A stretch of 64,000 nt of DNA, from NCBI GenBank assembly GCA_041662605.1, contig JBAZSD010000012.1:38788-102787 (forward strand), given 5' to 3'. How positions within the stretch are numbered: position 1 is the stretch's first letter; every line of letters starts with the position of its first letter. Source of the stretch: Desulfomonilaceae bacterium (GTDB taxonomy: Bacteria; Desulfobacterota; Desulfomonilia; Desulfomonilales; Desulfomonilaceae). Of the stretch, positions 16,701 to 48,138 are shown piece after piece. Under the pieces are notes generated by a model. It saw nothing but the letters and a program-made list of their open reading frames with translations. It ran no database searches and had not been told where the DNA came from. A program made the position numbers and the translations under genes.

Positions 16701-17294
16701 ATGGCAAGAGTTGCCGTTCCCATAATCGGAACGCTTTTGTTGGTTCTATTCCCAATAGCGCTTAGGGCCGAAGTAAAAATTCAGGCCAACGGAATTGCAA
16801 TTTGTTCCGTGATCATCAATGAGATGACCGAGGGGAAAATTCCCCTGAAGCAGTCGAGAGATATAGCTACCGCTATTGCTGGAGCTGGAAATAGACACTT
16901 TGGAAAAGTTACTTGTGGAGACATGTGGCTTTACATGGCAATGGTTTACGTTGAAAGCGGATTTCGCAACAATATTATAAACCACCAAAATTGCAGAGGA
17001 ATGTTTCAGATACATGCCCCGTCTTGGGCCTCAAAGTTCGGCGTCAAATATAGGGATCTGTTGAATCTGGAAACAAACGCAGATTGCGGTGTTCAGGTTC
17101 TTAAGTATTATCTCGGCCTTTACAGAGATTTAGGACAAGCTTTAAGCGCATACAACAGTGATCATCCAGCGGCAGCCAGAGGTTACGCTCGAATGGTGAT
17201 GTCTGTCAGAAACAAGATAAAAAAGAGATATGCGCAGCTTTACCATACTTATAAAGATGCCCCAATGCTGGTTGCGAGGACCCCGGACAGATAA
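16701..17294 (+). CDS. Lytic transglycosylase (SLT domain) protein
   Basis: Signal peptide. SLT catalytic region YVESGFRNN...RGMFQI...AYN. ATG 16701 is preceded by GGAGGG. Confidence 0.7.
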   Translation: MARVAVPIIGTLLLVLFPIALRAEVKIQANGIAICSVIINEMTEGKIPLKQSRDIATAIAGAGNRHFGKVTCGDMWLYMAMVYVESGFRNNIINHQNCRGMFQIHAPSWASKFGVKYRDLLNLETNADCGVQVLKYYLGLYRDLGQALSAYNSDHPAAARGYARMVMSVRNKIKKRYAQLYHTYKDAPMLVARTPDR

Positions 17295-17366
17295 TTAATT
17301 CCTCGTTTTGTCCCTTCAGAATTAAAAAATTCCAAACGGAGAATGGGGTATCGGTCTGAGATGTAT

Positions 17367-17615
17367 TTACCTGGGAGGACCGTACAAGAACGGTGTGGCT
17401 ATTGAGCTAAGAAAATCGAATGGATTTAGTGGCGAAGGATTATGATCCATAGGCACGTATGGGTCATGTCCCATTGGGTAACACGCGGACACTGGGCCAT
17501 TCGGCGGAGCTAAGTATTGAGGCAGACAACTCACACACCCACCGAGCCATAACATACTAAACAATATCAAAGTGATTAATAAATATTTTATAAATTGCTT
17601 CATATTGTTACGCAT
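17367..17615 (-). CDS. Small lipoprotein, unknown function
   Basis: Signal peptide with lipobox LGGC. The mature part is proline-rich. 82 aa. Confidence 0.45.
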   Translation of the reverse strand: MRNNMKQFIKYLLITLILFSMLWLGGCVSCLPQYLAPPNGPVSACYPMGHDPYVPMDHNPSPLNPFDFLSSIATPFLYGPPR

Positions 17616-17740
17616 TCAAAGAGTTAACTTATTTTAACCCTTAAAACTGTTTTGATCAAGCTAAAAATTTAGTTATATATAACTCCTTGAATTATAGGGT
17701 TTATTAATTCTCAGAAGAATAGGGCTAGCGCCATTAGTCA

Positions 17741-18784
17741 TTACTGATCCCTTGGCTTAAAAACACGAGATCCCTCGGGTAATATGACGAATTCCCCATT
17801 AGAATTAACTATTAGACACGAAATATTATTCATTTTATCAAGTAAAGAGCTTCCCTGCTTGGGGCCAAGAACAAATATTCCTGCGGACAGGCCTTCAGCC
17901 CGTACGCCATCAGGCGCCACCACGGAGACAGACTCCACTGCGGACGATGGGAACCCGGTTTTGGGGTCCAGAATATGGTGATACCGTATGCCGTCCTTTT
18001 CGAAGTATCTTTCATAATCACCCGATGTAAAGACTGATCCTGATTCGATGTCGACTGTCGCTGCGATGGCTGACGGGTCTCTCGGATCCTGGATACCAAT
18101 CTTCCATGGGACACCAGGTCCTTTACCTCCAAAAGCCGTAATATCGCCTCCAGCATTTATTAGAGCTGATTTGATTCCCGTTGATTTTATGATTTGTTCG
18201 GCCTGATTCAGTGCGTAGCCCTTTGCTATTCCTCCGAGATCCAAGGCCATTCCTTGTTCAGGAAGATAAATTTCGGATCTTTCAGGAAATATTTGGACCT
18301 TTTTCCAGCCCACTTTATTTAACGCCTGATTTATTTCTTCGGGGCTTGGTAGCCTGGGTCCTTCAGGGCCGCTAAAGTTCCAGAGTTTTGATATAACCCC
18401 GATAGTTGGATCAAAGGCCCCGTTGGTAAGTTGTGATATCTCCAGACTTCTTTGAATGAGGGCTATGAGTTCGGGATCCACCTTAACAGGCTCTAATCCT
18501 GATTTCTCGTTTATCTCATTAAGTTGAGACTGTTTATGAAAAGATGTTAAATCCTCAATTCGCTTGATTTCGTCTAGGGCCGAATTTGCCACCTTTGAAA
18601 GCTGGTCGGAAGGGCCCACCACCGTGACCTCAACGAGGGTTCCCATGAGTATCCGGCCGATTTTCAAGGTCGAATTGGAATTCCCCATGGAGCAGGAGTT
18701 CAAACTCCATGAGGTCAAAAGCAAGAAAGCCACCGTCAGCAAGGGGGTTCTACGATTTAAATCTACAAAATTGGGGAAAGCCAT
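17741..18784 (-). CDS. apbE: FAD:protein FMN transferase (ApbE family lipoprotein)
   Basis: Lipobox LNSCS, plus ApbE motifs GGIAKGYA and HHILDPKTG. Confidence 0.85.
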   Translation of the reverse strand: MAFPNFVDLNRRTPLLTVAFLLLTSWSLNSCSMGNSNSTLKIGRILMGTLVEVTVVGPSDQLSKVANSALDEIKRIEDLTSFHKQSQLNEINEKSGLEPVKVDPELIALIQRSLEISQLTNGAFDPTIGVISKLWNFSGPEGPRLPSPEEINQALNKVGWKKVQIFPERSEIYLPEQGMALDLGGIAKGYALNQAEQIIKSTGIKSALINAGGDITAFGGKGPGVPWKIGIQDPRDPSAIAATVDIESGSVFTSGDYERYFEKDGIRYHHILDPKTGFPSSAVESVSVVAPDGVRAEGLSAGIFVLGPKQGSSLLDKMNNISCLIVNSNGEFVILPEGSRVFKPRDQ

Positions 18785-19683
18785 CTGAATCTCGAAACCA
18801 AAATCTTGATTGGAACTACCATGGAGAAAAATGGGAACATGTACATGGCTGCTAGCGTTGGCGCCAAGGGTCCGAAGAAATGTGATGAAAAAACGATAAC
18901 CAGCACATTGTTCATGATTGCAAAACTTACTCCGGCGCCTACACGATTGGAAGAACTCTCTTTAGGAACAAGCAAGAACCCGGTCAGATAATATATTGCG
19001 GAAAGTCCGTAAGCCACTCCAAGGCTCAACAGGAGAACGCTAGGGCTCTGAAAGAAAAAATAAGAGTATTTGGAGAACACCCCCAGGTTGATAATCGCAA
19101 ATATAACGAGCGAAATAGGAAAATGAAACGGAAGTATTTTTTCCAAGGTCTCCATGAAAAACCGTCGAGCCACAATTACGGCCAACATGGGGACAAATAT
19201 GATAGTGGCCAGTAATCTGATCATCAATTCCAAAGGGATATTGACTTCCTGACCAGCGAGCGCTTTAAGGAGAACCGGCAAAGTGAAAGGAGCCAGCAAT
19301 GAGGTGATAATGACCATTCTCAACACAGGCGCCAACTCAGTATCCAACAAGTTAGCTATAAAAGGGGCCACGACCCCTGTTGAAATTCCAGATAACAAGA
19401 GAACAGGGATGGCGAAATCCGGAACTACCAACAAAGCGACCCAATACAAAACAGCCGGCAGAATCGCCAACTTGAACAGTACAAGGATAAGCGTCGTCTT
19501 GAGGGATCTTGGGGATGTATCCAGCAGTGAGTCGAAGTTGATTCTCAAAAAACTGAGAAACATCAGTAACATCATGAAATACAATGGATAAGGCTGTAGC
19601 GGAGAACACAATTCCGGTTCAAATATGGCAATCGCAGCGGAAGCGAAAATTACAACCAGAAGAATGAAGTCATTCATCCTCAT
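18763..19683 (-). CDS. Bile-acid:Na+ symporter (BASS/SBF-like) family membrane transporter
   Basis: 306 aa with about 9-10 TM segments and a BASS-like pattern (SGISTGVVAPFIANLL). It overlaps the apbE start by 22 nt. Confidence 0.5.
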   Translation of the reverse strand: MRMNDFILLVVIFASAAIAIFEPELCSPLQPYPLYFMMLLMFLSFLRINFDSLLDTSPRSLKTTLILVLFKLAILPAVLYWVALLVVPDFAIPVLLLSGISTGVVAPFIANLLDTELAPVLRMVIITSLLAPFTLPVLLKALAGQEVNIPLELMIRLLATIIFVPMLAVIVARRFFMETLEKILPFHFPISLVIFAIINLGVFSKYSYFFFQSPSVLLLSLGVAYGLSAIYYLTGFLLVPKESSSNRVGAGVSFAIMNNVLVIVFSSHFFGPLAPTLAAMYMFPFFSMVVPIKILVSRFRWLSPIL

Positions 19684-35041: not shown

Positions 35042-35681
35042 CTATTGCCCTGAATGCCCCCAATCTTTTTCAACGGCGTAATCGATAATCCTGTCAACGT
35101 ATTGAGAATCAATGGGAGGAACTGGAAGATTTGTTAGCGCCCTGTCGATGTTGGAGCGATCAAACACCGGGTTGTTCGCGAAGCGCAACAGAATTGTCTG
35201 CATTTGCCGCCACACCATCCTCTCGATCCTGTTTCTGGGTTGAATAAAGGGCGCTCCAGCGCCCGCAAATCGAAGGCCGTGCTAATTATGTGGACTTTAA
35301 GGGGCTTTTCGGTCCATCAATTTTCTTAATGTCACCGTTGAACCTAGGTTTGTCCTGAGAGGCTCCCCATGCTCGTCCATGTGCAGTCGTGTAGAAGCCG
35401 CGCTGTGCAACAAAGTGTGTCCACGTCTTTATTCCTTTATAGTCCTGGCGCCACTGGTCCCATTGATTGTCAGCTTCAAGGATATCACCCTTGAACCATT
35501 TTAGGGATCCCGCGCTTCTCGGGAGCCCGAGCCCCCCAAGAAACGTATTAGTATCCAGCTTTCGTGATTCACTCCTGTAGTGGGCCCATACGCTGTGACG
35601 GCGATCAAGCAATTCAGCCAACAGATATTCCCCGAGGAATCCTGTTCCACCGGTGAGAAGCACATTCATGGAATCGGACAT
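35042..35681 (-). pseudogene. Decayed NAD(P)-dependent thioester-reductase / SDR-like gene (N- and C-terminal remnants in different frames)
   Basis: The N-terminal frame (35681 to 35286) has the Rossmann motif VLLTGGTGFLGEYLLAELL and GDIL. A second frame (35281 to 35045, shifted by 1) reads ...RFANNPVFDRSNIDRALTNLPVPPIDSQYVDRIIDYAVEKDW-stop, which resembles the C-terminus of thioester-reductase domains. The total span is about 210 codons versus about 350-400 for intact family members. Confidence 0.5.
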
Positions 35682-35964
35682 GTATCTTCCGCATGTTCTA
35701 GAATTCCGCTCTAGGAACACCCTTATTCGAACATATTAATCTAGACTGTAGGCGTATGACATTACAAACAAAAAACCAAGACCAATCCTATAAAATCAAT
35801 CAATCTCACATCTTCATTAGTAGGTTAAAATATTGTAATAGCAGATGGTGTCTCATACAGGGAATCGTGAGGCTATTGACTTGAACCCAAGTTTTTTGAT
35901 TACATGCAGAGAATGATAGCTTATACTATAAGTTTGAATTTATTTTCCTAAATAAGGGTGTTAG

Positions 35965-38900
35965 ATGTCAGTCACATGTGATCAAGCTTCATTAATTTTC
36001 CTGTTTCAAGCTAATAATATTACCTCCTCACTAATAAATACAGCCAAAGACCTAAATGTTCGAGTGGCTTTTGATCTTGGATCTGAAAATCCATCTTTGT
36101 ATCAATCTTTGCTACTAGTAGCGGACGCGTCGCAAGATGTAGTGGATCTTAAGATCTCCCCCTGTGTACTCTCAGACCCAAAATTGGTAACCACGCTAAA
36201 TGAAATAGATGTCCGAAGAATTTGGCTGGACATGGAACCTGTTGGCGCTTTGGAGGACAAAAATTCAATATTTAAACAAATTGCAGAGCTAGCGTCTGAT
36301 TTTGAGATTATCCCAATATTGAGTGATTTAGGCTCCATCCGGAAAATTATAAAAGACCATCCAGACATAAGGAACATTGCCATAAAGGGAAATGAAGCAG
36401 CCGGTTTTGCTGGGTCAGAGACCTTGCTCACGCTTTTTTCAACTGTTTCTTCGCTACTCAAGCAATCAAACTCTCCTGCGAATATTTTCATATGGGGCGG
36501 GATCTCCTTTCCCGAGGTGGCGGCGGCGTTTCTGGCCTGTGGAGCAAAGGGCATAGTGTTTGAGAGTCTCCATTGGCTGACCGACATGGTCAACCTGGAC
36601 GAAGATTTCAAGAAGCGCATTGAGAACATTCGCCCGGATCACACTGAGTTGATAGGGGCAAATTTAGACGTTTATCTCCGAGTCTTCAATAAGGGTAATT
36701 CTACGTCCGTAAAAGATTTGAAAGATTTCGCCGGATCCTTATGTGGCGCCGAAATAAGAGACGAACAAAGAATTTCTTTTATCAGGCATGTTTTGAAAAA
36801 TTTGACGCATCCCCTTAAAAGCAAGTTTGGGAAAGATGAGTTGATCCCTCTAGGTACTGAAGCGACGTTCGCTGCATCTTTTGTTCGTCGCTACGGTTTT
36901 TTCACTGAACAGGCTATTGAGAAATTTAGTAAAGACATTGAAAAGTGTTTGAGCACGGCCCCCGAACGAGCCGTGTCTTTCGTAAAGAGCCCAACTGCTG
37001 AGAAGATGGGGACAGAATATCCATTTATTCAGGGGGCCATGTCCTGGATTACTGATTCAATGGAATTTGCGTCAGGCATTTTGGAGTCAGGAGCGTTACC
37101 AACGCTGGCGCTTGGGCTTATGGACTCCAACACATTGAACTCAAAATTCTCTGATTTGCAAAACCACTTGGGCGATCGGCCCTATGCCGTGAACATAATC
37201 ACCCTGTCCGAGAATCCATTCCGTGACGAGCAAGTTGAATGGGTAAAGTCTAAAAAACCTCGATTTGTAGTCATAGCTGCTGGAGAGCCATCTAACGCCA
37301 GGGGTTTCATTTCAGATGGTATTGAGGCTATATACATCGCGCCGAATGAGGAACTGCTCAGATTGGCGCTCGAAAACGGTATAAAGTTTGTGGTCCTTGA
37401 GGGTCATGAATCGGGGGGGCATGTCGGCGTTCATAGTACTGTGACTCTTGTCCAGGCGGCTCTGGATCTTAAGAGCCGTCGCCCTGAACTCTTTAAAGAT
37501 TCCACGATAATTTTCGCAGGTGGCTTTTTTAACCGTTTGACATCGGTCATTGCATCTATCATGGGCGCCGACGGCCTCCAAATGGGGACCGTATATCTGG
37601 CTTCAAAAGAAATTGTTGAAACAGGAGCACTAAGCCGGATTTACCAAAAGAGAATTCTTGAAGCTCAGCCCGGCTCGACTATAGTTACCGGCGAAAGCGC
37701 TGGACTACGTGTACGCTCCCTGAAGACACCAAAGATAGAAGCGATTTGTTCACTCGAACGCGATTTTGCCACCGGTTCCGAGAACGAAAGTTCCTTTCGA
37801 AGGAAAATAGAGACATTGAGCGCGGGCAGTCTTTTCATTGCTGCTAAAGGCATGAATAAGCCCGATGGCGAAAAGTTGGCTGAATCAGAAATAATGAAGC
37901 AGGGCCAATTCATGAGTGGCGCATGCGCGGGGGGAATCAACGTCCAGCTTTCTCTGCGCCAAATCCATGAGAATTTGGCATTTGGCGCGCCAAATGATGT
38001 TTTGCCCGCTCGGGTAAGCCTCAGACCTGACTACTCCGAACCATTGTCCAATAAACAGAGTTCTTTTTCCTTTTCCAGCCACCAGACTTCCACCACGCGT
38101 GGTTCCAACACAGGGACCAATGGATTCGAAAGGATAGCGATAACCGGAATGAGTGTTGTCAACTCACTCGGCGCTAGTCCTCTGGAAATAATACAGGCAA
38201 GCCTGGCTCTAAAAAGCGGTGTTACCCCGGTTCCGTCCACAAAGTGGAATCATGAGGCCTTTTTCAGCTCAAAACCTAGGGCTTCTGAAAAAACCTATTG
38301 CCGATATGGGGCTTTTCAAAACCTTGAAGTTTCCAGAAAGGAATTAGGCATTCCGCCTCAAGATTTCAGAACTATGGCTGAAGCCACAAAAATTACATTG
38401 TGGTTAGCCAAAAACGCAATATTGGAATCAAACATCCTGGAGTCGAACATCCCCAGAGAACGCATTGGCGTTCTAATATCTCAGAATTCAGGCGAAGCTG
38501 CGTCAACATTGGAGCAGATGATAATCAGAGGTTGCTCTGAAAAAATATTATCCGACATCAAGAGAGCGCTCAATCTTACCCCTGACCAGGAGGCTCTTGT
38601 ATCCGAAGAGATTAAGCAGAAAAGAATGGGTGTCGATGACACCACCCTTCTCGGTCGGCTAAACTGTTCAGCCGGTGGATTCATATGCAACAAATATGGA
38701 TTTATGGGCCCCAGTTTCTCTGTTTCAGCGGCTTGCGCAACGTCTTTGGTGGCTCTCTACAGCGCTTACCAAATGATTAGAAACGGAATCATAGACGCTG
38801 CTGTGGTAGGTGGGGGTGAGGAGCTTTTGACTCCAATGCATTTCCTGGAGTTTTCAGCTTTGGGGGCTTTGGCAGGTCTGTCGGGCGCCAACAAATCTCC

Positions 38901-41900
38901 TGCCGAGGCTAGTAGGCCCTTTGACGCGGACCGTGATGGGATGGTCCTTGGCGAAGGCGGAGCGATGATAGTCATCGAACGCGAATCAATCGCACTCAAA
39001 CGAGGCGCCAATATTTCGGCCTTTATAACTTCCATGGGAGCCAGCAATAACAATCTTGGCATGGTGGAGTCTTCCAGAGCCACTCAGGAAATCGCTATCA
39101 GAGCCTCTTTCAAGGACTGCTCATATGGCCCGGAATCCGTGGACTTGATAGAGTGCCACGCCACCAGCACTAAACAGGGCGATGTAGAAGAAGTCCAGGG
39201 GCTGAAATCAATATTCAATTCCGGTCGTCCGCCGGTTCTCACCTCTTTCAAGTCTCAAATCGGTCACACTTTGGGAGCTTCTGGACTTAACAGCCTGATC
39301 CGGGGTGTTATGGCCATGCGCTCGAAGGTTTTTTCTCCAACAATCAATTATTGCAAACCGGACCCCGAGATTGGAATGGAATCAGCGGGATTCAGAGTAA
39401 TGTCTGAACCTTCTGATTGGCCGCTCAGCAATGGCAATCCTCGGCGATTCCAGGTTAACGCTTTTGGCTTTGGCGGATCGAACTACGTGGTTCAGATCGA
39501 AGAATCCCAAAATCAAGAAGCGGTAAGATTTTCTCCATCTCCAGAAAAACTCAAGATTTCCGTTGATAAGCGTCCAATAGTCAAGGCTCCGGATGGAATA
39601 CATTTCTTTCGAAGTTCTATAGCTGGAGAAACATACCGGATAGCTGTAATCGCTGAATCTGAAGCCGCTGCTGTTGAGATGATACAAAACGAAGATTTGA
39701 TCTCCGGCGAAGGAGCGATCGGTGGTAAACGACTGAAAGTTTTGGCGAGGCAGGGCATTCATATCGGATCATCCAACGCGCCAATACCCCGCATGGCTTT
39801 TGTTTTCCCCGGTCAGGGATCACATTACGCCGGAATGGGGCATGAGCTTTACAATAACTTCCCGGTGATTCGGGAATGGATGAACAGAGCCGCTGACGTA
39901 GCGGAATTCGATATCCTTAAACTTCTATTTTACGATAAAGAAGAAGATTTACAAAAAACAAGGTGGCAGCAGCCGGCGCTATTTACTCTTGAATACGCCT
40001 TGGTGCAACACTTGATTTCACTGGGGGCTAGGGCCACGGCTTTGGCCGGACATAGTCTCGGAGAACTCACAGCCCTGTGCCTTGCCGGTGTTTACTCTTT
40101 TGAGGACGGCTTTCGCATTGTGAACAAGCGTGCAGTTTGCATGGACAAAGCCTGCAAAATGAACGTGGACCCGGGAATCATGGTGGCCTGTGACGCTCCT
40201 CTGGACGTGGTAGATCAAATCCTGTCCGAAGCAAAAAACGTTTACATAACGAACATAAATTCACCTAGGCAGATTGTAATCGGAGGGGCGACCGAAGAGT
40301 CCAAGGAAATCTCAGCTAGACTGAAAGAAATGGGATATAGGAGCACCGTCCTAAGGGTAAGCATGGCGTTTCATTCGCCGATCATGAGGTGTATCCACGA
40401 TGAGCTGAGAGAATTTATTGATACCGTAGATTTCCACCCCCCCCAAATTCCTGTTATTTCCAACACCACGATGAAACCTTTTCCGGACGATGCTGAAGAG
40501 ATAAAGGGAATTGTGATGGCCCATCTTGAGTCTCCGGTTCATTGGCTCCAGAATGCCAAGACGTTGTGGAACGAATTTGACGTGAGACTTTTTGTTGAAG
40601 TCGGGCCGCGAGAAGTTTTGTCTAACCTTATACAGGACACTATTGAAGAAGCCCCATGTATTCAGACCTGTCTGCCTTCCGCCGAGTCTTTAATGTGCAA
40701 GACAGCGGTAGCTCAACTGTATTCCAAGGGAATTCTGCCAATTGATAATGCGAGAGATTTGACCGACGATCTTTATCGGGGCTCCCAATTTGAAGCGGTT
40801 GAAAACCATAAGGAACGGCCGGTGGAGCGTACAGTTAATTCCAGGGTTTCAATACAAACTGATTTGAAAGAAATTATACAAAAAGAAATCAACTCATTCG
40901 TAATCGAAACATTTGGCAGATTTATCAGGCCTTCTATCTTACGGCAGATTCGTACAATTAAGGACCCAAAATTCAGCGAAGCCGATCTGGACAGGATACT
41001 TGGAAATTCATTCGGCGCGTTGTCCACCCCATCTCTTATTGAGACGCCGTACAATCAAACCCAGCTTACAATCGCTCAACAGGAACCAATGAGATCCGCT
41101 GCTCCTGAACCGGAATCCTCGGCTCCGGATACCACGGAGACAATTATTCGCATAATAATGGAGGTAACTGGTTATGACAGGGATGAGATTGAACCTCACA
41201 TGGACCTTAGGGAAGATCTCGCAATAAGATCCAGCAGGCTTCCTGTAATTATGGATGCGGTGGAAAGTCGATTCAAAATCAAGATCGAACTTGAGGACTT
41301 TATGGACGTGAGAACAATTAAGGACCTGTCGGATCGTCTCGACATGGTTGTATCAAGAAAAGCTCCGTCCATCGCAAAAAATGCGTCAGTCGATTCTGAA
41401 ATCGAGGAAACAGAGATTCTGGAAACTCCCAAGGAAATTTTGAAAAGACTTACTTTTTCGGAAGTTCCCCTGACTGGCGATTCTTTTCAGCCGCTGGAAC
41501 TTAGTCCGATGGATTCGGTTATTGTTGTTGGCCCTTCTTCGTCCGAAGAATTCTGCAGGAATGTGGGAGACGTTTTTCGCAGGGATTACGGGGTCCGGAT
41601 AGATCACTTTTTCTTTGGTTTGAGTCAATCGGATAAAGACGAAAACATCGTTGACTTGCTATCGGATTCCGGTCTGATGGAAATAAAAGACACAATAAGA
41701 GATTCCGAGTCTCCGGCGGGAATAGTCTTTGTCACTGATGAGGCTTTTGAGGCGAGATTTTCCGAAACAGCGACGTTGACGAACTTTTTGACGGGATTTT
41801 TCAGCTTGTTGCAGCAATTTATTCAGAAACCAAGCAAAAAGATGTCTGTATACTTGCAATCTGGGGGTGACTCGCCGAGCGCTTTCATGGAAGCCGTTAC

Positions 41901-43860
41901 GGGCATTTTCCTCAGCTCTGCTCTAGAATACAGTTCGGTCCTTTTTAGAACGGTATTGGTTGATTCATCTACTGACATAAGAACCGCTATACGAAGTTCA
42001 ATGGACAGGAGTAAAAAACCGGTTCAACTCATATGCAGAAATGAAGAACTGTACACTCTCCAAGGTAAGGTGGCTCCATTTCTGTTTGAAACCGCCAATA
42101 GGAAAATCGAAATCGGCGAGAATGATGTTGTTTTAATTTCAGGAGGGCTTTCCGGAGTGTCCGCAGAACTTGGGAGAGCTTTCGGGCCGTTTGGTCCAAA
42201 GTTGATCTTCATTGGTCGGACATCCATAGACAGCAGATCCAGCAATTACGTTAATGACCAAAAGACGTCCTTGACCCTCAAAGCCCTTGAAGAACTCCAA
42301 GCAGGCGGCCTCAGATCTTATTACTATCAACTGGATGTGACAGATTCGGGTTCAATTCAAAAAGTTCTGGATAGAATTCAGAAGGAACACGGCAAAATAA
42401 CTGGTGTGATTTATGGCGCCGGCCTATTGAAGGACAATTTTATCAATCGAATGCCAACAAAAGATTTTTCCTCTGTCGTCAACGTAAAATTTCTCGGAGC
42501 GCTAAATCTTTTCAACGCGTTGGACAAAACATCGCTCAAGTTTTTTGTAGCTCTTTCATCGGCAGCGGCCATCCAGGGAAACCCCGGACAGGCTAATTAC
42601 GCAGCGGCTAACAGGATGATGTCAGCATTTATAAGGGGCCAAAGAAGTATTCATCCCAAGATCCAGCTCAAGGCGCTCATGCTGCCCCCGATCGAGGGAG
42701 CCGGTATGGCTGAAAACGCTGAAACCAAGGAACTGATGCGCCGGATGAATGCGTCGTACATTTCACTTGAAGAATTGCGCGGAATGTTTTTACGAGAACT
42801 ATTCATCGCTTCCAAAAAAGATTCGTGGTCTCTCTTTATGAAGAACCTTCCGTGTTTGAGTTCCGCTCCCCTGGATACTCAAGTAGAAAATTCAGATGAA
42901 ACTGTTATCGATATCGGGTCAGTAGATTTCAGAAAAGCGGATTTCCCAATGCTGGACTCAGTACCGGATCTAGACATGGATAAAGGTTCTCTGAAGGCAT
43001 TAAGATTTTTCGATCAACAAAAAGACCCTTGGGTGGTGGATCACAAGCCTTTCAAGTTCATGAAACACCCTATAGTATCTGCGATCATGGCCGTTGAAAC
43101 ATTTATGGAGGCTTCCAAGACATTATTTCCGTTTTTGAACGTTGTAGGCCTGAAAGAAGCCCGTTTCCTTGACGTTATAGAATGCCCGCCGCATAAATCT
43201 GTAGAAAGCCAAATTTTTGTGGCAAAGGTTTTGGAAGAACGTGGAACAATCATTTGTGACGCTATAATGTGCGCTCAAAAGGGCAAGTCTGGAAAGACGA
43301 TTGAAAAGACTCATCCAAACTTCAAGGCTCAGATAATAATGGCTGGAAACGCTATTACCCCAGCCAGATCTTTTGAGGGGTTTCCTGTTCGACCGGACGA
43401 GTTGGACACAAGATCGATGGAACATGACGAAGTCATGGAGTGGTATTCTGATCGCTCCGATCTCAAAGGACGGTATCGGGTCATGGAAAGGTTTTACGGA
43501 ACCGGACCTGATTGTATCAAAGGAGAGTTTACTTACAGGCATTCCCACGATTTTGCCAAACCTCTGCGAACTGTATACCAGTTTTCCCCGTACCTTTTTG
43601 AAGCGTTTATGCATTTGATCAACTTTTATCTTGCGATGCGGGACGATCATGACAAGCGATCGCTTATTCCCTTTGGAATTAATGAACTGCGTTGTTTTCG
43701 CAAGATAGAGGATGGCGAACGGATTGTCGTGGAAGCGCGTAAAAAATCAGGTGATGAAAAAGGAGTGATGTGGGACGCGTTGGGACTGGACGCAAGTGGA
43801 TCAGTAGTAATGTATTCCAAGGGTATAAAGATGATATGGATATCTGGTTTAGGAACCTGA
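35965..43860 (+). CDS. Type I FAS/PKS-like megasynthase: degenerate NMO-like barrel, NMO-type enoyl reductase, KS, AT, ACP, KR, DH (PfaD::PfaA-like fusion)
   Basis: 2631-aa ORF. Motif order with approximate nt positions:
- Degenerate NMO-like barrel, 35965-36990 (IKGNEAAGFAGSE).
- FabK/PfaD-type ER, 37010-37950 (YPFIQGAMSWIT, LEGHESGGHVG).
- KS, 38130-39500 (AACATS with Cys924 = 38734-38736, ECHATST, GHTLGASG).
- AT, 39790-40640 (FPGQGSHY, GHSLGE with Ser1364 = 40054-40056, AFHSP).
- ACP, 41130-41350 (LAIRSS with Ser1756 = 41230-41232).
- KR, 42100-42750 (ISGGLSGVS, NYAAAN).
- PKS-type DH, 42900-43857 (DHKPFKFMKHP with His2360 = 43042-43044).
No TE, R or C release domain is visible. Confidence 0.85.
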   Translation: MSVTCDQASLIFLFQANNITSSLINTAKDLNVRVAFDLGSENPSLYQSLLLVADASQDVVDLKISPCVLSDPKLVTTLNEIDVRRIWLDMEPVGALEDKNSIFKQIAELASDFEIIPILSDLGSIRKIIKDHPDIRNIAIKGNEAAGFAGSETLLTLFSTVSSLLKQSNSPANIFIWGGISFPEVAAAFLACGAKGIVFESLHWLTDMVNLDEDFKKRIENIRPDHTELIGANLDVYLRVFNKGNSTSVKDLKDFAGSLCGAEIRDEQRISFIRHVLKNLTHPLKSKFGKDELIPLGTEATFAASFVRRYGFFTEQAIEKFSKDIEKCLSTAPERAVSFVKSPTAEKMGTEYPFIQGAMSWITDSMEFASGILESGALPTLALGLMDSNTLNSKFSDLQNHLGDRPYAVNIITLSENPFRDEQVEWVKSKKPRFVVIAAGEPSNARGFISDGIEAIYIAPNEELLRLALENGIKFVVLEGHESGGHVGVHSTVTLVQAALDLKSRRPELFKDSTIIFAGGFFNRLTSVIASIMGADGLQMGTVYLASKEIVETGALSRIYQKRILEAQPGSTIVTGESAGLRVRSLKTPKIEAICSLERDFATGSENESSFRRKIETLSAGSLFIAAKGMNKPDGEKLAESEIMKQGQFMSGACAGGINVQLSLRQIHENLAFGAPNDVLPARVSLRPDYSEPLSNKQSSFSFSSHQTSTTRGSNTGTNGFERIAITGMSVVNSLGASPLEIIQASLALKSGVTPVPSTKWNHEAFFSSKPRASEKTYCRYGAFQNLEVSRKELGIPPQDFRTMAEATKITLWLAKNAILESNILESNIPRERIGVLISQNSGEAASTLEQMIIRGCSEKILSDIKRALNLTPDQEALVSEEIKQKRMGVDDTTLLGRLNCSAGGFICNKYGFMGPSFSVSAACATSLVALYSAYQMIRNGIIDAAVVGGGEELLTPMHFLEFSALGALAGLSGANKSPAEASRPFDADRDGMVLGEGGAMIVIERESIALKRGANISAFITSMGASNNNLGMVESSRATQEIAIRASFKDCSYGPESVDLIECHATSTKQGDVEEVQGLKSIFNSGRPPVLTSFKSQIGHTLGASGLNSLIRGVMAMRSKVFSPTINYCKPDPEIGMESAGFRVMSEPSDWPLSNGNPRRFQVNAFGFGGSNYVVQIEESQNQEAVRFSPSPEKLKISVDKRPIVKAPDGIHFFRSSIAGETYRIAVIAESEAAAVEMIQNEDLISGEGAIGGKRLKVLARQGIHIGSSNAPIPRMAFVFPGQGSHYAGMGHELYNNFPVIREWMNRAADVAEFDILKLLFYDKEEDLQKTRWQQPALFTLEYALVQHLISLGARATALAGHSLGELTALCLAGVYSFEDGFRIVNKRAVCMDKACKMNVDPGIMVACDAPLDVVDQILSEAKNVYITNINSPRQIVIGGATEESKEISARLKEMGYRSTVLRVSMAFHSPIMRCIHDELREFIDTVDFHPPQIPVISNTTMKPFPDDAEEIKGIVMAHLESPVHWLQNAKTLWNEFDVRLFVEVGPREVLSNLIQDTIEEAPCIQTCLPSAESLMCKTAVAQLYSKGILPIDNARDLTDDLYRGSQFEAVENHKERPVERTVNSRVSIQTDLKEIIQKEINSFVIETFGRFIRPSILRQIRTIKDPKFSEADLDRILGNSFGALSTPSLIETPYNQTQLTIAQQEPMRSAAPEPESSAPDTTETIIRIIMEVTGYDRDEIEPHMDLREDLAIRSSRLPVIMDAVESRFKIKIELEDFMDVRTIKDLSDRLDMVVSRKAPSIAKNASVDSEIEETEILETPKEILKRLTFSEVPLTGDSFQPLELSPMDSVIVVGPSSSEEFCRNVGDVFRRDYGVRIDHFFFGLSQSDKDENIVDLLSDSGLMEIKDTIRDSESPAGIVFVTDEAFEARFSETATLTNFLTGFFSLLQQFIQKPSKKMSVYLQSGGDSPSAFMEAVTGIFLSSALEYSSVLFRTVLVDSSTDIRTAIRSSMDRSKKPVQLICRNEELYTLQGKVAPFLFETANRKIEIGENDVVLISGGLSGVSAELGRAFGPFGPKLIFIGRTSIDSRSSNYVNDQKTSLTLKALEELQAGGLRSYYYQLDVTDSGSIQKVLDRIQKEHGKITGVIYGAGLLKDNFINRMPTKDFSSVVNVKFLGALNLFNALDKTSLKFFVALSSAAAIQGNPGQANYAAANRMMSAFIRGQRSIHPKIQLKALMLPPIEGAGMAENAETKELMRRMNASYISLEELRGMFLRELFIASKKDSWSLFMKNLPCLSSAPLDTQVENSDETVIDIGSVDFRKADFPMLDSVPDLDMDKGSLKALRFFDQQKDPWVVDHKPFKFMKHPIVSAIMAVETFMEASKTLFPFLNVVGLKEARFLDVIECPPHKSVESQIFVAKVLEERGTIICDAIMCAQKGKSGKTIEKTHPNFKAQIIMAGNAITPARSFEGFPVRPDELDTRSMEHDEVMEWYSDRSDLKGRYRVMERFYGTGPDCIKGEFTYRHSHDFAKPLRTVYQFSPYLFEAFMHLINFYLAMRDDHDKRSLIPFGINELRCFRKIEDGERIVVEARKKSGDEKGVMWDALGLDASGSVVMYSKGIKMIWISGLGT

Positions 43861-43861
43861 A

Positions 43862-44614
43862 ATGAGGGGCGCCGAGCGGAAATTGGATGAAAACCGTTCA
43901 GGAGAATTTTGCTCTTTGCGGCAGGACGTCTTTTACACTAGTGTCAGGCATAAGTCTGTTAACCCCGGGAGCGAGTCTCGTGGAGAAATCAAGCGGCTCG
44001 TTGCCCGTAGTCTGATGGCGTTCGCTATTGAGAGAGGTATGCTAAGAGCGAATTCTTATGAATTGGATGATCGAATTCTGGACATTCAGAAAGACAGTCT
44101 AGGTAGACCGACTCTTAAAGGTTTCAAAAATGAGAATTGGTCGATTTCATTTTCATATGGGCGCGAGAAATTATGGGGGGCCATATGCTACGGGAATTTA
44201 AATTGTGGAATCGACGTCGCGTATCCCGAAGAATTCACAAAGTCCTACCCTTTTCATAGAGCGTTCAGTGACTCGGAATTGTATCTTCTGTCGTCTTCAC
44301 TGGATCTTAATGCTATCGAGTCCGCTGCGTTTGCATGGTCGGCCAAAGAGTCAGTAGTCAAAGCGCTAGGAGTCGGGTTTCATTTCTGTGATCCACTTGA
44401 TCTGGAAGTGACTGATGTTCAATCATTCGGGCGGTATTTTGAGGCTAGGCTAGGTTTAACGGTCAAACCCAAATTAAAGGCCACTCTAAATGGCTTCACG
44501 GTCTTTAAGACCATGGTACGCCATGATGAAAACGGATTTCTATCCTTAAGCGCGACCGCTATTTCGAATAATCAAGTCCATTCTGAGGGCTTGGAGCGTT
44601 CCATCGTGATGTAG
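43862..44614 (+). CDS. 4'-phosphopantetheinyl transferase (Sfp/PfaE type)
   Basis: The ATG lies 1 nt after the megasynthase TGA. Motifs CGIDVAYPEEF and FAWSAKESVVKALG, i.e. (W/F)(S/C)xKE(S/A)xxK. Confidence 0.8.
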   Translation: MRGAERKLDENRSGEFCSLRQDVFYTSVRHKSVNPGSESRGEIKRLVARSLMAFAIERGMLRANSYELDDRILDIQKDSLGRPTLKGFKNENWSISFSYGREKLWGAICYGNLNCGIDVAYPEEFTKSYPFHRAFSDSELYLLSSSLDLNAIESAAFAWSAKESVVKALGVGFHFCDPLDLEVTDVQSFGRYFEARLGLTVKPKLKATLNGFTVFKTMVRHDENGFLSLSATAISNNQVHSEGLERSIVM

Positions 44615-44626
44615 GCTAACAGTTTA

Positions 44627-46183
44627 ATGAGAGTACTTCTGATAAACAGCAACAGAAAAGGAGATATGCTGGCCGCCGCGCCAATTGGTCTCTGTTATGT
44701 GGCTTCCGCCGTAGAGGCCGCTGGCCATTCGGTGAAGACGCTGGATTTATGTTTTGCAGGCAAGAGAGTACTTTCCGAAGTAAGCAATTTAGTAGAGTCG
44801 TTTGCGCCCGATGTTGTCGGGGTTTCTGTCAGGAACATAGACAATACGAACATGCTTCACTCAATCTCCTATCTTCCTGACGCAGCCGGTTTGATGGAGC
44901 ATTTAAGACTGATAACGGCAAGCCCTGTCGTGATTGGTGGATCTGCCGCAAGTTTGGCTCCAGAAGCCATTCTGAGGTTCTTGAAGGCCGATTACATTGT
45001 TGTTTCGGATGGTGAAGAGCCCTTTCAGCGCTTACTCAAATGTTTGGAAGACCACAAAAACCCCTCGGGAATACCCGGTGTGGGAATGCTGATTAACGGA
45101 TCGTTTCATCTCACTCCGCCTGTTCTTAATGGGTTTGACGGCAAAGCGCCCGATATAGGCCGATGGGTCGATACTTCACTATACCGAAAAATAGGCGCGG
45201 CTTATAACATCCAGACCAAAAGAGGCTGCAGGAAGCGCTGCGTTTATTGCACCTACAATCAGTCCCTTGAAGGGGGTCGGTTAAGGTTGAGAGATCCGAT
45301 AGATGTAGTAGACGAAATAGAGGACGCCCTCAAAAAGTACCGACCAAATTGTTTTGAATTTGTAGATTCGGTTTTTAACGACCCGATCGAGCATTCGAGA
45401 GCGATTCTTGAAGAAATAATCAGGCGGCCCTGGAAGGCCTTGTTCACGGCAATGGGTGTTCACCCAAAGGGGCTTGACCGAGAATACCTCGATTTGATGT
45501 GGAGAGCCGGTTTCAGGTCTTTAATGATCACTCCGGAGTCCGCTTCAGACAAAATGTTGGACTCATATAGAAAAGGATTTACAAAGCAAGACGTCCTCAA
45601 TGCCGCGGAAGCGCTGAATCGGACGGCTTTCGCTGTCTGGTGGTTTTTCATGATAGGTGGGCCTGGAGAGACAAATGAAACGTTGAAAGAATCTCTGGAT
45701 TTTGTGCTGACTAATCTTCAGAAAAGGGGGCGCGCCGTAACTCATGTAGCTCAATTCTTCTTCGGCGTGAGATTATATCCGGGCACTGATTTGTGGAAGA
45801 TGGCTCAAGAGCAGGGATTCGTCAATGGGACTCCCAATCCCCTTGAACAGGCGTGGTATTTGTCAGAGGAACTTGATCTTGATAAAGCGTTGTCCCAGAT
45901 GCTTGGGGCCGCTGCAATATGTCCAGAGGTCTACCTTGGATTTGATGAACGACTGTTGGCCTTTTCCAGGACTATCGTAGCAGTTTGTCGTCTTTTGCGT
46001 TTGAAAGGGCCATACTGGAAATACATGAGGTTTGGTAACGTAATAGGAATCAAGACAGGAATAAGGTTCATTTTTAAACCACGAGACGCTTCAGGTTTGA
46101 TAAGGAAGGCTCTCATCAGGCAATCTTATTCCGGCCCTCTTTTGAATAAACTTCAAGAACCGTTGATAGCCCTGGATAGTTGA
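44627..46183 (+). CDS. B12-binding-domain radical SAM enzyme (class B rSAM)
   Basis: N-terminal Rossmann-like B12-binding-type region (MRVLLINSN...PIGLCYVASAVEAAGHSVKTLDL...VGVSV). CX3CX2C motif GCRKRCVYCTY (Cys201/205/208 = 45227-45250). It starts 12 nt after the PPTase stop. Confidence 0.8.
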   Translation: MRVLLINSNRKGDMLAAAPIGLCYVASAVEAAGHSVKTLDLCFAGKRVLSEVSNLVESFAPDVVGVSVRNIDNTNMLHSISYLPDAAGLMEHLRLITASPVVIGGSAASLAPEAILRFLKADYIVVSDGEEPFQRLLKCLEDHKNPSGIPGVGMLINGSFHLTPPVLNGFDGKAPDIGRWVDTSLYRKIGAAYNIQTKRGCRKRCVYCTYNQSLEGGRLRLRDPIDVVDEIEDALKKYRPNCFEFVDSVFNDPIEHSRAILEEIIRRPWKALFTAMGVHPKGLDREYLDLMWRAGFRSLMITPESASDKMLDSYRKGFTKQDVLNAAEALNRTAFAVWWFFMIGGPGETNETLKESLDFVLTNLQKRGRAVTHVAQFFFGVRLYPGTDLWKMAQEQGFVNGTPNPLEQAWYLSEELDLDKALSQMLGAAAICPEVYLGFDERLLAFSRTIVAVCRLLRLKGPYWKYMRFGNVIGIKTGIRFIFKPRDASGLIRKALIRQSYSGPLLNKLQEPLIALDS

Positions 46184-46324: not shown

Positions 46325-46612
46325 ATGACGCTTACCAAAGCTGATATAGCAAAAAAGATTGCGGATGACTGTGGTTTTATGAAAGGGGAAGCAACCGAGA
46401 TTGTGGAAAAACTCCTCGACATAGTCAAAGATTGCTTAATCGATGGGGAAGATGTGATGATTTCTGGGTTTGGAAAGTGGACTGTCAAGGGGAAAAATTC
46501 CCGACGAGGTAGAAACCCTCAAACTGGAGCTGAGTTGATTCTTGACGCCCGCAAAGTAGTTACCTGGAAATATTCTCCGGTCCTTAAGAAATCCGTGAAC
46601 GTACCCGCCTAG
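46325..46612 (+). CDS. ihfA: Integration host factor alpha-like (IHF/HU family) DNA-bending protein
   Basis: MTLTKADIAKKI...ISGFGKW.V..KNSRRGRNPQTGAELILDARKVVTWK. This resembles IhfA closely (MALTKAE..., R.GRNPKTGE). GGGAGG lies upstream of ATG 46325. Confidence 0.7.
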   Translation: MTLTKADIAKKIADDCGFMKGEATEIVEKLLDIVKDCLIDGEDVMISGFGKWTVKGKNSRRGRNPQTGAELILDARKVVTWKYSPVLKKSVNVPA

Positions 46613-46719
46613 AAAATCCGCCAACATACATTTGGGACTGTTCCTGCGTGTCTGTTCACCTCAAATCGCCTTTTTGACAGATTTGGGACGAACAGGCCCG
46701 TAATAGGGACAACAATTTT

Positions 46720-48138
46720 TTGAGCTGGGAAATCTTGACTTCTCGATCAGGAAATTCCAATCCGATATCAAGAGCTTTCCGGAATGTGCTGGAGGGTTAT
46801 GCGGAAGTTCTGCGGATATCCATCCCACTAATCCTTTCCACTTCCTCTTTGACTTTGGCGCTTTTTGTGGATCGGTTGATGCTCTCCTGGCACAGCATTG
46901 ACTCTGTAGCGGCCGCCACACCCGGAGGGATAACCTATTTTACAATCTGCTGTTTTTTTCAGGGTACTGCTCAATATACCAACACGCTGGTAGCTCAAAG
47001 TCATGGCGCAGGAGACAGTGTCACGCTGTCGAGGTCGGTCTGGCAAGGGATTCTGTTTTCTTTGTTGGCGCTCCCGCTGCTGATTATGACTATACCTGTG
47101 GGCCGGTGGGTGTTGGCCCATACGGGCCATGAACCGAATATAATCACTCTTGAAAGAGAATACTTTACGATACTTATGTACAGTGGCGTGGCGCTTCCTC
47201 TTAATGCAGCGTTTTCGTCCTTTTTCTCGGGAAGGGGTCGAACTTCGTATGTACTAATTGGCAATCTCATAGGGAATTTAGGAAACATAGTTCTGGACTA
47301 CGTTTTAATATTCGGGAAGTTTGGTTTTCCTGAACTGGGAATAAAGGGCGCAGGAATCGCCACGGCTGTGACCAATTTCCTCCCGACCATTTATTGGGCA
47401 TGGTTATTCTTGGGACCCCGTTATCAGCCCAAGTATCAGACCAGAAAACAATTCACCTTCGACAGGAAAATCTTTTGCGCCCTCCTAAGATTCGGTCTTC
47501 CAGCGGGGACTCAATTTATTCTGGATGTCGGATCATTCACGGCTTTTGTCCTGATCGTGGGCAAACTGGGGGCAATAGACCTTGCCGCAACCAATATTGC
47601 GCTCAGCATTGAGACATTGTCCTTCTTACCTATGGTGGGTATGTCGATAGCCACGAGTTCCATAGTAGGTGAATACATAGGCCGAAAACAGATCAACGTA
47701 GCGGAAAGGAGGGTGTATTGCTCATTAGCCCTCGCCTTGTTTTACACGGGCGTCGTCACAGCGTTCTTCTGGATAATACCCGAATTTTTTTTAAATCTTT
47801 TCAGGCCCTATCACCAGACGAAATTGGCTTTCGAGCCCCTGCTTGAAAAAGGTGTGGCCCTGGTTCGGATAATAGGGGCCTACACCCTATTTGACACAGT
47901 TTTCATCATATTCAACGGAGCGCTAAAAGGAGCTGGTGACACGAAGTTTACGATGTGGGCCCAGATCATAGCGTCCTGGGTATTTTTTGTCCCACCTGTT
48001 TACATCATGACGACATATCTGGGGTTGGGAATTTTGGCAGCCTGGTCCTGGCTCTTAATCTACGTCATTTCGATCGGAACTATTTTCTGGTTGAGGTTCA
48101 AATCCGGTCACTGGAAGTCGATCAGACTATTTAACTGA
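46720..48138 (+). CDS. MATE-family efflux transporter
   Basis: 472 aa and 12 TM segments, with a MATE-like internal repeat (LRISIPLILS...; LRFGLPAGTQF...). TTG start. Confidence 0.75.
   Translation: MSWEILTSRSGNSNPISRAFRNVLEGYAEVLRISIPLILSTSSLTLALFVDRLMLSWHSIDSVAAATPGGITYFTICCFFQGTAQYTNTLVAQSHGAGDSVTLSRSVWQGILFSLLALPLLIMTIPVGRWVLAHTGHEPNIITLEREYFTILMYSGVALPLNAAFSSFFSGRGRTSYVLIGNLIGNLGNIVLDYVLIFGKFGFPELGIKGAGIATAVTNFLPTIYWAWLFLGPRYQPKYQTRKQFTFDRKIFCALLRFGLPAGTQFILDVGSFTAFVLIVGKLGAIDLAATNIALSIETLSFLPMVGMSIATSSIVGEYIGRKQINVAERRVYCSLALALFYTGVVTAFFWIIPEFFLNLFRPYHQTKLAFEPLLEKGVALVRIIGAYTLFDTVFIIFNGALKGAGDTKFTMWAQIIASWVFFVPPVYIMTTYLGLGILAAWSWLLIYVISIGTIFWLRFKSGHWKSIRLFN

Follow-up and report, generated by a model that had tools for sequence, protein, structure and literature searches.

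A predicted cobalamin-dependent radical SAM enzyme accompanies a type I fatty-acid synthase in Desulfomonilaceae and is a candidate for methylation of its chain

The operon and its radical SAM protein

We analysed a 64,000-nucleotide stretch of DNA from a Desulfomonilaceae bacterium (GenBank assembly GCA_041662605.1, contig JBAZSD010000012.1, positions 38,788 to 102,787 of the forward strand), hereafter the window, to which all positions refer unless another contig or locus is named. Our subject is a B12-binding radical S-adenosylmethionine (SAM) gene at 44627-46183 (+), the sole long frame there, which encodes 518 amino acids and is the last gene of a three-gene operon. The operon opens with an iterative type I synthase of 2631 amino acids (35965-43860, +), assigned by Pfam and NCBIfam domain matches, followed by an Sfp-type 4'-phosphopantetheinyl transferase (PPTase) of 250 amino acids (43862-44614, +; PF01648, E 6.1e-10). 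The TGA of the synthase (43858-43860) is separated by 1 nt from the ATG of the PPTase at 43862. The PPTase ends at 44614 and the radical SAM gene starts with the ATG at 44627, which reproduces the 12-nt spacing given in an original prediction made from the letters of the window. Three further genes flank the operon: a decayed thioester reductase (NAD_binding_4; 35057-35693, −), divergent from the synthase and recognised from tblastn pieces and a blastn gap; an HU/IHF-like gene directly 3' of the radical SAM gene (46325-46613, +), identified by translation and blastp; and a MATE-family exporter (46720-48138, +; PF01554, TIGR00797).

The radical SAM protein matched the Pfam models PF02310 (B12-binding, residues 18-136, E 1.1e-15) and PF04055 (Radical_SAM, residues 197-360, E 4.9e-20). 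Its N-terminal cobalamin-binding Rossmann domain comprises residues 1-145 (44627-45061, +), and corrinoid-protein folds match residues 1-142 of the structural model described below. The radical SAM core (about residues 190-400; 45194-45826, +) carries the CX3CX2C motif, Cys201, Cys205 and Cys208, at 45227-45250, with all three cysteines invariant among 30 aligned homologues. The reading frame, both Pfam domains and the invariant cysteines agree with the original assignment of a class B radical SAM enzyme with this motif. Full-length homologues share 49-91% identity, and nearly all begin with the same MRVLLINSN sequence, so the annotated start codon is taken to be right. Domains, fold and residues together confirm the predicted identity of the protein as an intact class B (cobalamin-dependent) radical SAM enzyme. 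A single sediment-metatranscriptome contig of 228 nt, 100% identical, covers 45432-45659, which is too little for a claim of transcription or co-transcription; the remaining sequence-run holders of the gene were groundwater DNA runs.

We divided the homologues into clade A (59-91% identical to the window protein) and clade B (49-56%). An AlphaFold model built from 30 homologues (mean pLDDT 89.5, pTM 0.88) found its best PDB match in TsrM, a cobalamin radical SAM methyltransferase (Foldseek E 1.7e-31), which is also the nearest characterised relative by sequence (E 2e-26). Alignment with VIA-align gave a Z score of 34.5 and a root-mean-square deviation of 2.5 Å over 459 residues, pairing model residues 1-477 with TsrM residues 3-559. 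Because the superposition extends this far, we assign residues ~401-477 (45827-46057, +), with the conserved motifs CPE(I/V)YLGFDE and PYW(K/R), to a TsrM-type C-terminal domain. The remaining residues 478-518 (46058-46180, +) form a basic tail with two short helices and without a structural counterpart in TsrM; both clades conserve it as far as residue 508 or so. The C-terminal extension of about 120 amino acids that the original prediction had left unassigned is thus mostly the TsrM-type domain, and only the tail of about 40 residues is truly additional. The isoelectric point of residues 438-518 is 10.7, versus 4.6 for the acyl carrier protein (ACP) domain of the synthase, and the tail may serve in docking to the carrier domain or to a membrane; a complex prediction for the radical SAM protein and this ACP domain, with alignments for both, scored 0.00 and weighs neither way.

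The best named model for the protein was TIGR04072 (rSAM_ladder_B12, "lipid biosynthesis B12-binding/radical SAM protein"; 301.4 bits, E 9e-90, residues 2-421). Since this score lies below the cut-off of 360, the protein is not a member of that family; clade B (315 bits) and the outgroup relatives (259-343 bits) also stay below it. Other models scored further below their cut-offs: TIGR04385 of BzaD with 184 bits (cut-off 450), TIGR04428 of TsrM with 128.3 bits (cut-off 500) and the HpnR model with 60.6 bits (cut-off 650); HpnJ gave 87 bits. We searched 1.84 billion representatives exhaustively and obtained 626 clusters at E <= 1e-30; the protein's own family amounts in essence to one or two clusters at the 50% identity level, and the next relatives are 35-42% identical. 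A protein atlas look-up returned generic "B12-binding radical SAM" clusters and nothing narrower. In a tree from a quick search, with branch support from the Shimodaira-Hasegawa-like approximate likelihood ratio test (SH-aLRT) only, a long stem parted the family from the outgroups (SH-aLRT 99), clade B was monophyletic (SH-aLRT 95), and the clade A sequences fell in two groups. Among the wider matches, four proteins of 1820-2331 amino acids (P0203, P0259, P0261 and P0269) each matched the query in 4-5 separate stretches, and may be polyproteins of tandem B12-radical SAM modules.

A phmmer alignment to Kitasatospora setae TsrM (6wte) paired TsrM Arg69 (VGVTVRNTD) with Arg69 of the window protein (VGVSVRNID; 44831-44833), which sits within an invariant S-x-R-N-x-D-N motif of the Rossmann domain and is itself invariant in the 30-sequence alignment. 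TsrM Glu273 (DSEFN) aligned with Val249 (DSVFN; 45371-45373), and this valine is invariant in the family. In TsrM, Arg69 is reported to lie beneath the corrin, and Glu273 reportedly ligates the unique iron of the cluster, so that TsrM makes no 5'-deoxyadenosyl radical. Given these roles, replacement of the glutamate by valine should leave the unique iron open to SAM. On that reading, the family would keep a TsrM-like cobalamin pocket, and its cluster would be open and canonical in radical generation, which is what attack on an unactivated alkyl C-H bond would need.

Linkage and co-occurrence with the synthase

We compared 80 species-level loci, 50 of clade A (49 with enough upstream sequence) and 30 of clade B, all from metagenome-assembled genomes labelled Desulfomonile, Desulfomonilaceae, Desulfomonilales or older names. 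A complete megasynthase lay directly upstream on the same strand in 9 of the 10 first-fetched clade A loci, usually with the PPTase between, and at species level the synthase stood directly upstream of the radical SAM gene in 45 of the 49 informative loci. The PPTase (29-79% identity) held the same position in most clade A loci, and a stand-alone thioester reductase (NAD_binding_4; TIGR01746-like) diverged from the synthase wherever the flank extended that far. A downstream MATE exporter, 53-98% identical, occurs at about 33 of these 50 loci. In the closed 6.5-Mb family genome G457, the full cassette is present in the same order: reductase on one side, then synthase, PPTase, radical SAM gene (62% identical), IHF-like gene and MATE gene. 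The four exceptional clade A loci all bear a lipid-type family 2 glycosyltransferase (GT2; best models HpnB, 156 bits, and CruG, 136 bits), and three of them are arranged as reductase <-> (PPTase remnant)-radical SAM-GT2. The IHF/HU-like gene, 86-99% identical, follows the radical SAM gene in about 40 of the 50 loci; its conservation is far higher than that of the cassette genes, and its position is fixed across many genera. It may regulate the cassette, or be a housekeeping gene whose synteny is fixed.

Clade B genes are mostly unlinked to the synthase, with 5 of 30 loci holding it within 10 kb in other arrangements. The radical SAM gene lies about 150-185 nt upstream of the synthase in two of these (L120 and L131) and about 7 kb upstream in a third (L130); in L128 the synthase is upstream of the radical SAM gene across a 1.3-kb gap, and in L129 the synthase and PPTase are convergent with it, on the opposite strand. 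The other neighbours vary by locus and include a SPASM radical SAM gene, a gene similar to β-ketoacyl-ACP synthase III, and YhdP-like, DegT and kinase genes. Some clade B genes adjoin a SPASM-domain radical SAM gene or a second, longer B12-radical SAM gene (L029:4615-6099, −; L032:1442-2935, +; L038:841-2850, −; L036:4612-6201, −), a hint that radical tailoring may there proceed in several steps. Two outgroup relatives adjoin a UbiA prenyltransferase with a family 4 glycosyltransferase (GT4), and a flavin adenine dinucleotide (FAD)-dependent reductase, respectively, so the wider shell of these enzymes also looks lipid-related.

Within Desulfomonilaceae, the radical SAM gene was present in 44 of 44 genomes of at least 90% completeness, covering 22 of 22 genera, and in 0 of 24 genomes from its sister family, which belongs to the same class. 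We then counted both genes in an evenly drawn phylum sample of 401 genomes, calling the synthase at E <= 1e-150 and a close radical SAM protein at >= 49% identity. The synthase was found in 17 genomes and the close radical SAM protein in 12, every one of which also had the synthase; the 384 genomes that lacked the synthase had no close radical SAM protein. Where the radical SAM gene is unlinked, nine of nine genomes tested hold the synthase elsewhere; five of them represent as many genera of the family, and four belong to two other families. The pattern is that of a synthase with an optional radical SAM accessory, never the reverse. These counts are given without a P value because related genomes share descent. 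The original prediction had tied the enzyme to a fatty-acid/polyketide megasynthase by gene order, and the tie survives a look at its closest homologues, which do not lie outside lipid or polyketide contexts: adjacency holds for most of clade A, and for clade B the tie takes the form of genome-wide co-occurrence.

Several family genomes carry 2-3 radical SAM paralogues beside one synthase. Second copies with in-frame stops (two TAG and one TAA; a single TAA or TGA) were seen at G004:C10:90429-91913 (−), G024:C262, G465:C7 and G455:C7, which suggests frequent turnover of paralogues in the family.

The window protein is the sole intact family member in its source genome (4.4 Mb, 99% complete). 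The adjacent reductase is readable by tblastn only over residues 12-151 and 301-374, in differing frames, and blastn against the intact copy in a 91%-identical neighbour genome gave an internal gap of about 440 bp, for which an assembly artefact is possible. A second locus on contig C17 (17188-20524) holds an intact reductase (17188-18279, −), PPTase-like and radical SAM remnants, and an intact lipid-type GT2 gene; the radical SAM remnant (18896-19105) is 67% identical to residues 450-518 of the window protein. In the sister genome L021, the second locus is intact, arranged as reductase <-> PPTase-like, radical SAM, GT2. Because each locus of the source genome keeps what the other lost, the pair resembles the outcome of a cassette duplication followed by complementary decay. 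The same genome encodes a serine-palmitoyltransferase-like α-oxoamine synthase (C16:29497-30684, −; L051:1459-2646), which scored higher with SerpalmtaseCFB (523 bits, cut-off 640) than with BioF or Kbl. Sphingolipid-like lipids may be made by this organism; the gene is not linked with the cassette and shows no tie to the radical SAM enzyme.

A candidate tailoring reaction and its alternatives

The synthase has the domain order enoyl reductase (ER)-like region, ER (FabK/NMO type), ketosynthase (KS), acyltransferase (AT), a single ACP, ketoreductase (KR) and polyketide synthase (PKS)-type dehydratase (DH). Neither a methyltransferase nor a release domain was found in it with Pfam and NCBIfam, and the AT appears malonyl-type from its GHSLGE and AFHS motifs, as read from the translation. 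The ACP (41130-41350) has the unusual attachment motif L-(A/S)-I-R-S-S-R-L-P, invariant in 10 orthologues, with Arg in place of the Asp that usually precedes the serine.

Gene linkage and co-occurrence make it highly likely that the radical SAM enzyme works on the product of the type I synthase. Since the two travel together in every complete family genome searched, a modification of the long chain without oxygen is very probable. Which reaction it performs is a more tentative matter. The original prediction had listed mid-chain methyl branching, tail-to-tail coupling and cyclisation. Methylation of an unactivated chain carbon is the possibility favoured here, at a little short of even odds, on three grounds: the nearest characterised relatives (TsrM, BzaD and MgmA) are all methyltransferases; the synthase, without a methyltransferase domain and with a malonyl-type AT motif, cannot branch the chain itself; and the presence of 2-3 paralogues per synthase resembles the regiospecific methylases of hopanoids and bacteriochlorophylls. 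CysS and TokK are also among the fold matches, a precedent for pantetheine-bound substrates of B12-radical SAM methylases.

The resulting proposal is that the radical SAM protein is a dedicated tailoring enzyme of an ArsA-type synthase (ER-KS-AT-ACP-KR-DH) and methylates its chain, a statement to which, taken whole, we assign a probability of about 0.45. In the proposed pathway, the PPTase would activate the single ACP of the synthase, which would assemble malonyl units into a long chain, saturated and free of branches. The radical SAM enzyme would cleave SAM at its open, canonical [4Fe-4S] cluster to form a 5'-deoxyadenosyl radical, which would take a hydrogen from an unactivated chain carbon, with methylcobalamin most probably donating the methyl group, yielding a methyl branch. 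The stand-alone thioester reductase, here the intact copy on C17, would free the chain as an aldehyde or alcohol, and the MATE transporter, together with the lipid-type GT2 at some loci, would handle the product. We infer the substrate and its methylation, and likewise whether the chain is still ACP-bound when it is modified.

Several points weigh against this proposal, in which the tie between enzyme and product is drawn from gene order and co-occurrence. Homology to methylases is suggestive only, because lipid-acting B12-radical SAM enzymes also make rings and double bonds. The co-occurrence rests on about 3-4 lineages, related genomes not being independent, and an all-against-all comparison of 15 clade B loci gave no conserved neighbours aside from extra radical SAM paralogues. 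Five synthase-bearing genomes of the phylum sample have no close radical SAM protein, so the step must be optional. In the source genome, the release reductase adjacent to the operon is a pseudogene, so the pathway there would have to rely on a reductase in trans.

One alternative is that the enzyme is an oxygen-independent desaturase, which would put a double bond into the saturated chain as does the archaeal tetraether desaturase Ted. We added this reaction to the candidates because Ted, a B12-radical SAM lipid desaturase, has been described (bioRxiv 10.1101/2025.10.20.683597). The hosts belong to strict-anaerobe lineages, the full KR-DH-ER set of the synthase leads one to expect saturated chains, and the linkage data fit any tailoring reaction equally. 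However, the nearest characterised relatives by sequence and by fold are methyltransferases, and desaturation explains the multiple paralogues per genome less simply; we regard it as unlikely.

Likewise unlikely is the formation of a C-C bond, either a Grs-like ring closure within the chain or a coupling of two chains as in diabolic acid. GrsA and GrsB are B12-binding radical SAM ring synthases without auxiliary clusters, in which cobalamin has been proposed to hold the first radical (PMC13459092), and TIGR04072, the named model closest to the protein, centres on a candidate ladderane B12-radical SAM enzyme with a proposed role in cyclisation. The window protein falls below the cut-off of that model, however, and the ladderane candidate itself has no proven function. 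Enzymes that couple two sp3 carbons (Tes, and by postulate Mss and Gms) use auxiliary Fe-S clusters (PMC13459092), and the cysteine sets described there for the auxiliary [4Fe-4S] clusters of Tes and Mss were not found in the 30-sequence alignment of the family. Only the cluster ligands C201, C205 and C208 are invariant there, with C23 and C42 nearly so, and as these three are the sole invariant cysteines, there is no sign of auxiliary clusters. Tail-to-tail coupling of the Tes/Mss type, one of the reactions first listed, therefore loses support. The structure of Tes (GDGT-MAS) was not among the best 50 fold matches, a weak observation that we do not use as evidence.

That the enzyme acts on no lipid at all, modifying instead a protein (for example a synthase residue or the carrier domain) or serving an unrelated syntenic pathway, is very improbable: it can draw on MgmA, which ranks second among the structural matches (Z 26.5) and is a protein glutamine C-methylase that, like Mmp10, acts on methyl-coenzyme M reductase, on the unusual invariant I-R-S-S-R motif of the ACP, and on the housekeeping-like IHF gene, whose equal synteny shows that synteny alone can mislead, but the synthase linkage recurs in at least four differing gene orders, co-occurrence persists where the two genes are unlinked, relatives outside the family adjoin lipid-type genes, and synthase-bearing genomes without the enzyme indicate that it is not needed for synthase maturation.

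Relation to known systems and significance

TsrM, the tryptophan 2-C-methyltransferase of thiostrepton biosynthesis (6wte/6wtf), shares with the window protein a common three-domain architecture, 22-25% identity and Arg69. It differs in having Glu273 where Val249 is found here, in its thiopeptide rather than lipid context, and in lacking the basic tail of about 40 residues. CysS and TokK/ThnK are tailoring enzymes of assembly-line clusters with phosphopantetheine-held substrates, and match the fold with Z scores of 20-24; their C-terminal region is far larger, their identity to the window protein is 13-17%, and their substrates are small aromatic or β-lactam compounds.

The hopanoid methylases HpnP and HpnR, the ring synthases GrsA/B of glycerol dialkyl glycerol tetraethers (GDGTs), the tetraether methylases Gmm and Cgm, and Ted are cobalamin-type radical SAM enzymes that act on inert lipid carbons without oxygen (PMC13459092; bioRxiv 10.1101/2025.10.20.683597). 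Their substrates are isoprenoid, and none is reported to adjoin a type I fatty-acid synthase (FAS) or PKS, whereas the window enzyme adjoins a fatty-acid megasynthase. The Kuste2803-type anammox ladderane candidate of TIGR04072 is likewise a B12-radical SAM protein among fatty-acid synthesis genes, of unknown function (PMC2649909, PMC13459092). Genes of that kind lie in type II FAS clusters (anammox/Desulfotalea) with amxACP and FabF paralogues, whereas the cassette described here has a single-polypeptide type I synthase with a PPTase, a reductase and a MATE exporter.

The synthase and PPTase unit resembles ArsA/ArsD, the likeness to ArsA resting on its published description. In Azotobacter vinelandii, the type I FAS and PPTase of this system, of Type P, make C22-C26 chains that are passed on without a thioesterase (PMC4824345, PMC3098273). 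The Ars system hands its chain to type III PKSs, and differs from the present cassette in having no radical SAM, reductase or MATE gene.

A 2026 review of lipid-modifying radical SAM enzymes covers isoprenoid systems, Jaw5 and the unproven ladderane candidate only (PMC13459092). The partnership of this radical SAM subfamily with a type I synthase was not found described in the literature searched, including that review and the ladderane papers, nor did those searches find anything relevant on PKSs, radical SAM enzymes or branched GDGTs in Desulfomonile or Desulfomonilia. The protein would be a class B radical SAM tailoring enzyme whose partner and kind of substrate are both undescribed.

The cassette as a whole (reductase, synthase, PPTase, B12-radical SAM, IHF-like and MATE genes) could be the basis of a methyl-branched long-chain lipid specific to Desulfomonilaceae, an idea that we consider doubtful. 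A 1994 paper on Desulfomonile tiedjei reportedly describes "signature branched long-chain hydroxy fatty acids". These may possibly be the lipids in question, although connecting them with the cassette is a guess.

Little is known of the ways in which strict anaerobes modify inert fatty chains. Gene order and co-occurrence here tie a B12-radical SAM subfamily to a type I FAS in every complete Desulfomonilaceae genome searched. If the proposed methylation is true, this would be the first bacterial cobalamin radical SAM enzyme that methylates a fatty-acyl chain, and would provide an oxygen-free route to mid-chain branches like those in sedimentary biomarkers. Such a result would widen the range of reactions known to tailor fatty acids and polyketides, and would give a role to the large body of "ladderane-like" radical SAM genes below the model threshold that genome mining flags. 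It would possibly also explain branched long-chain lipid biomarkers.

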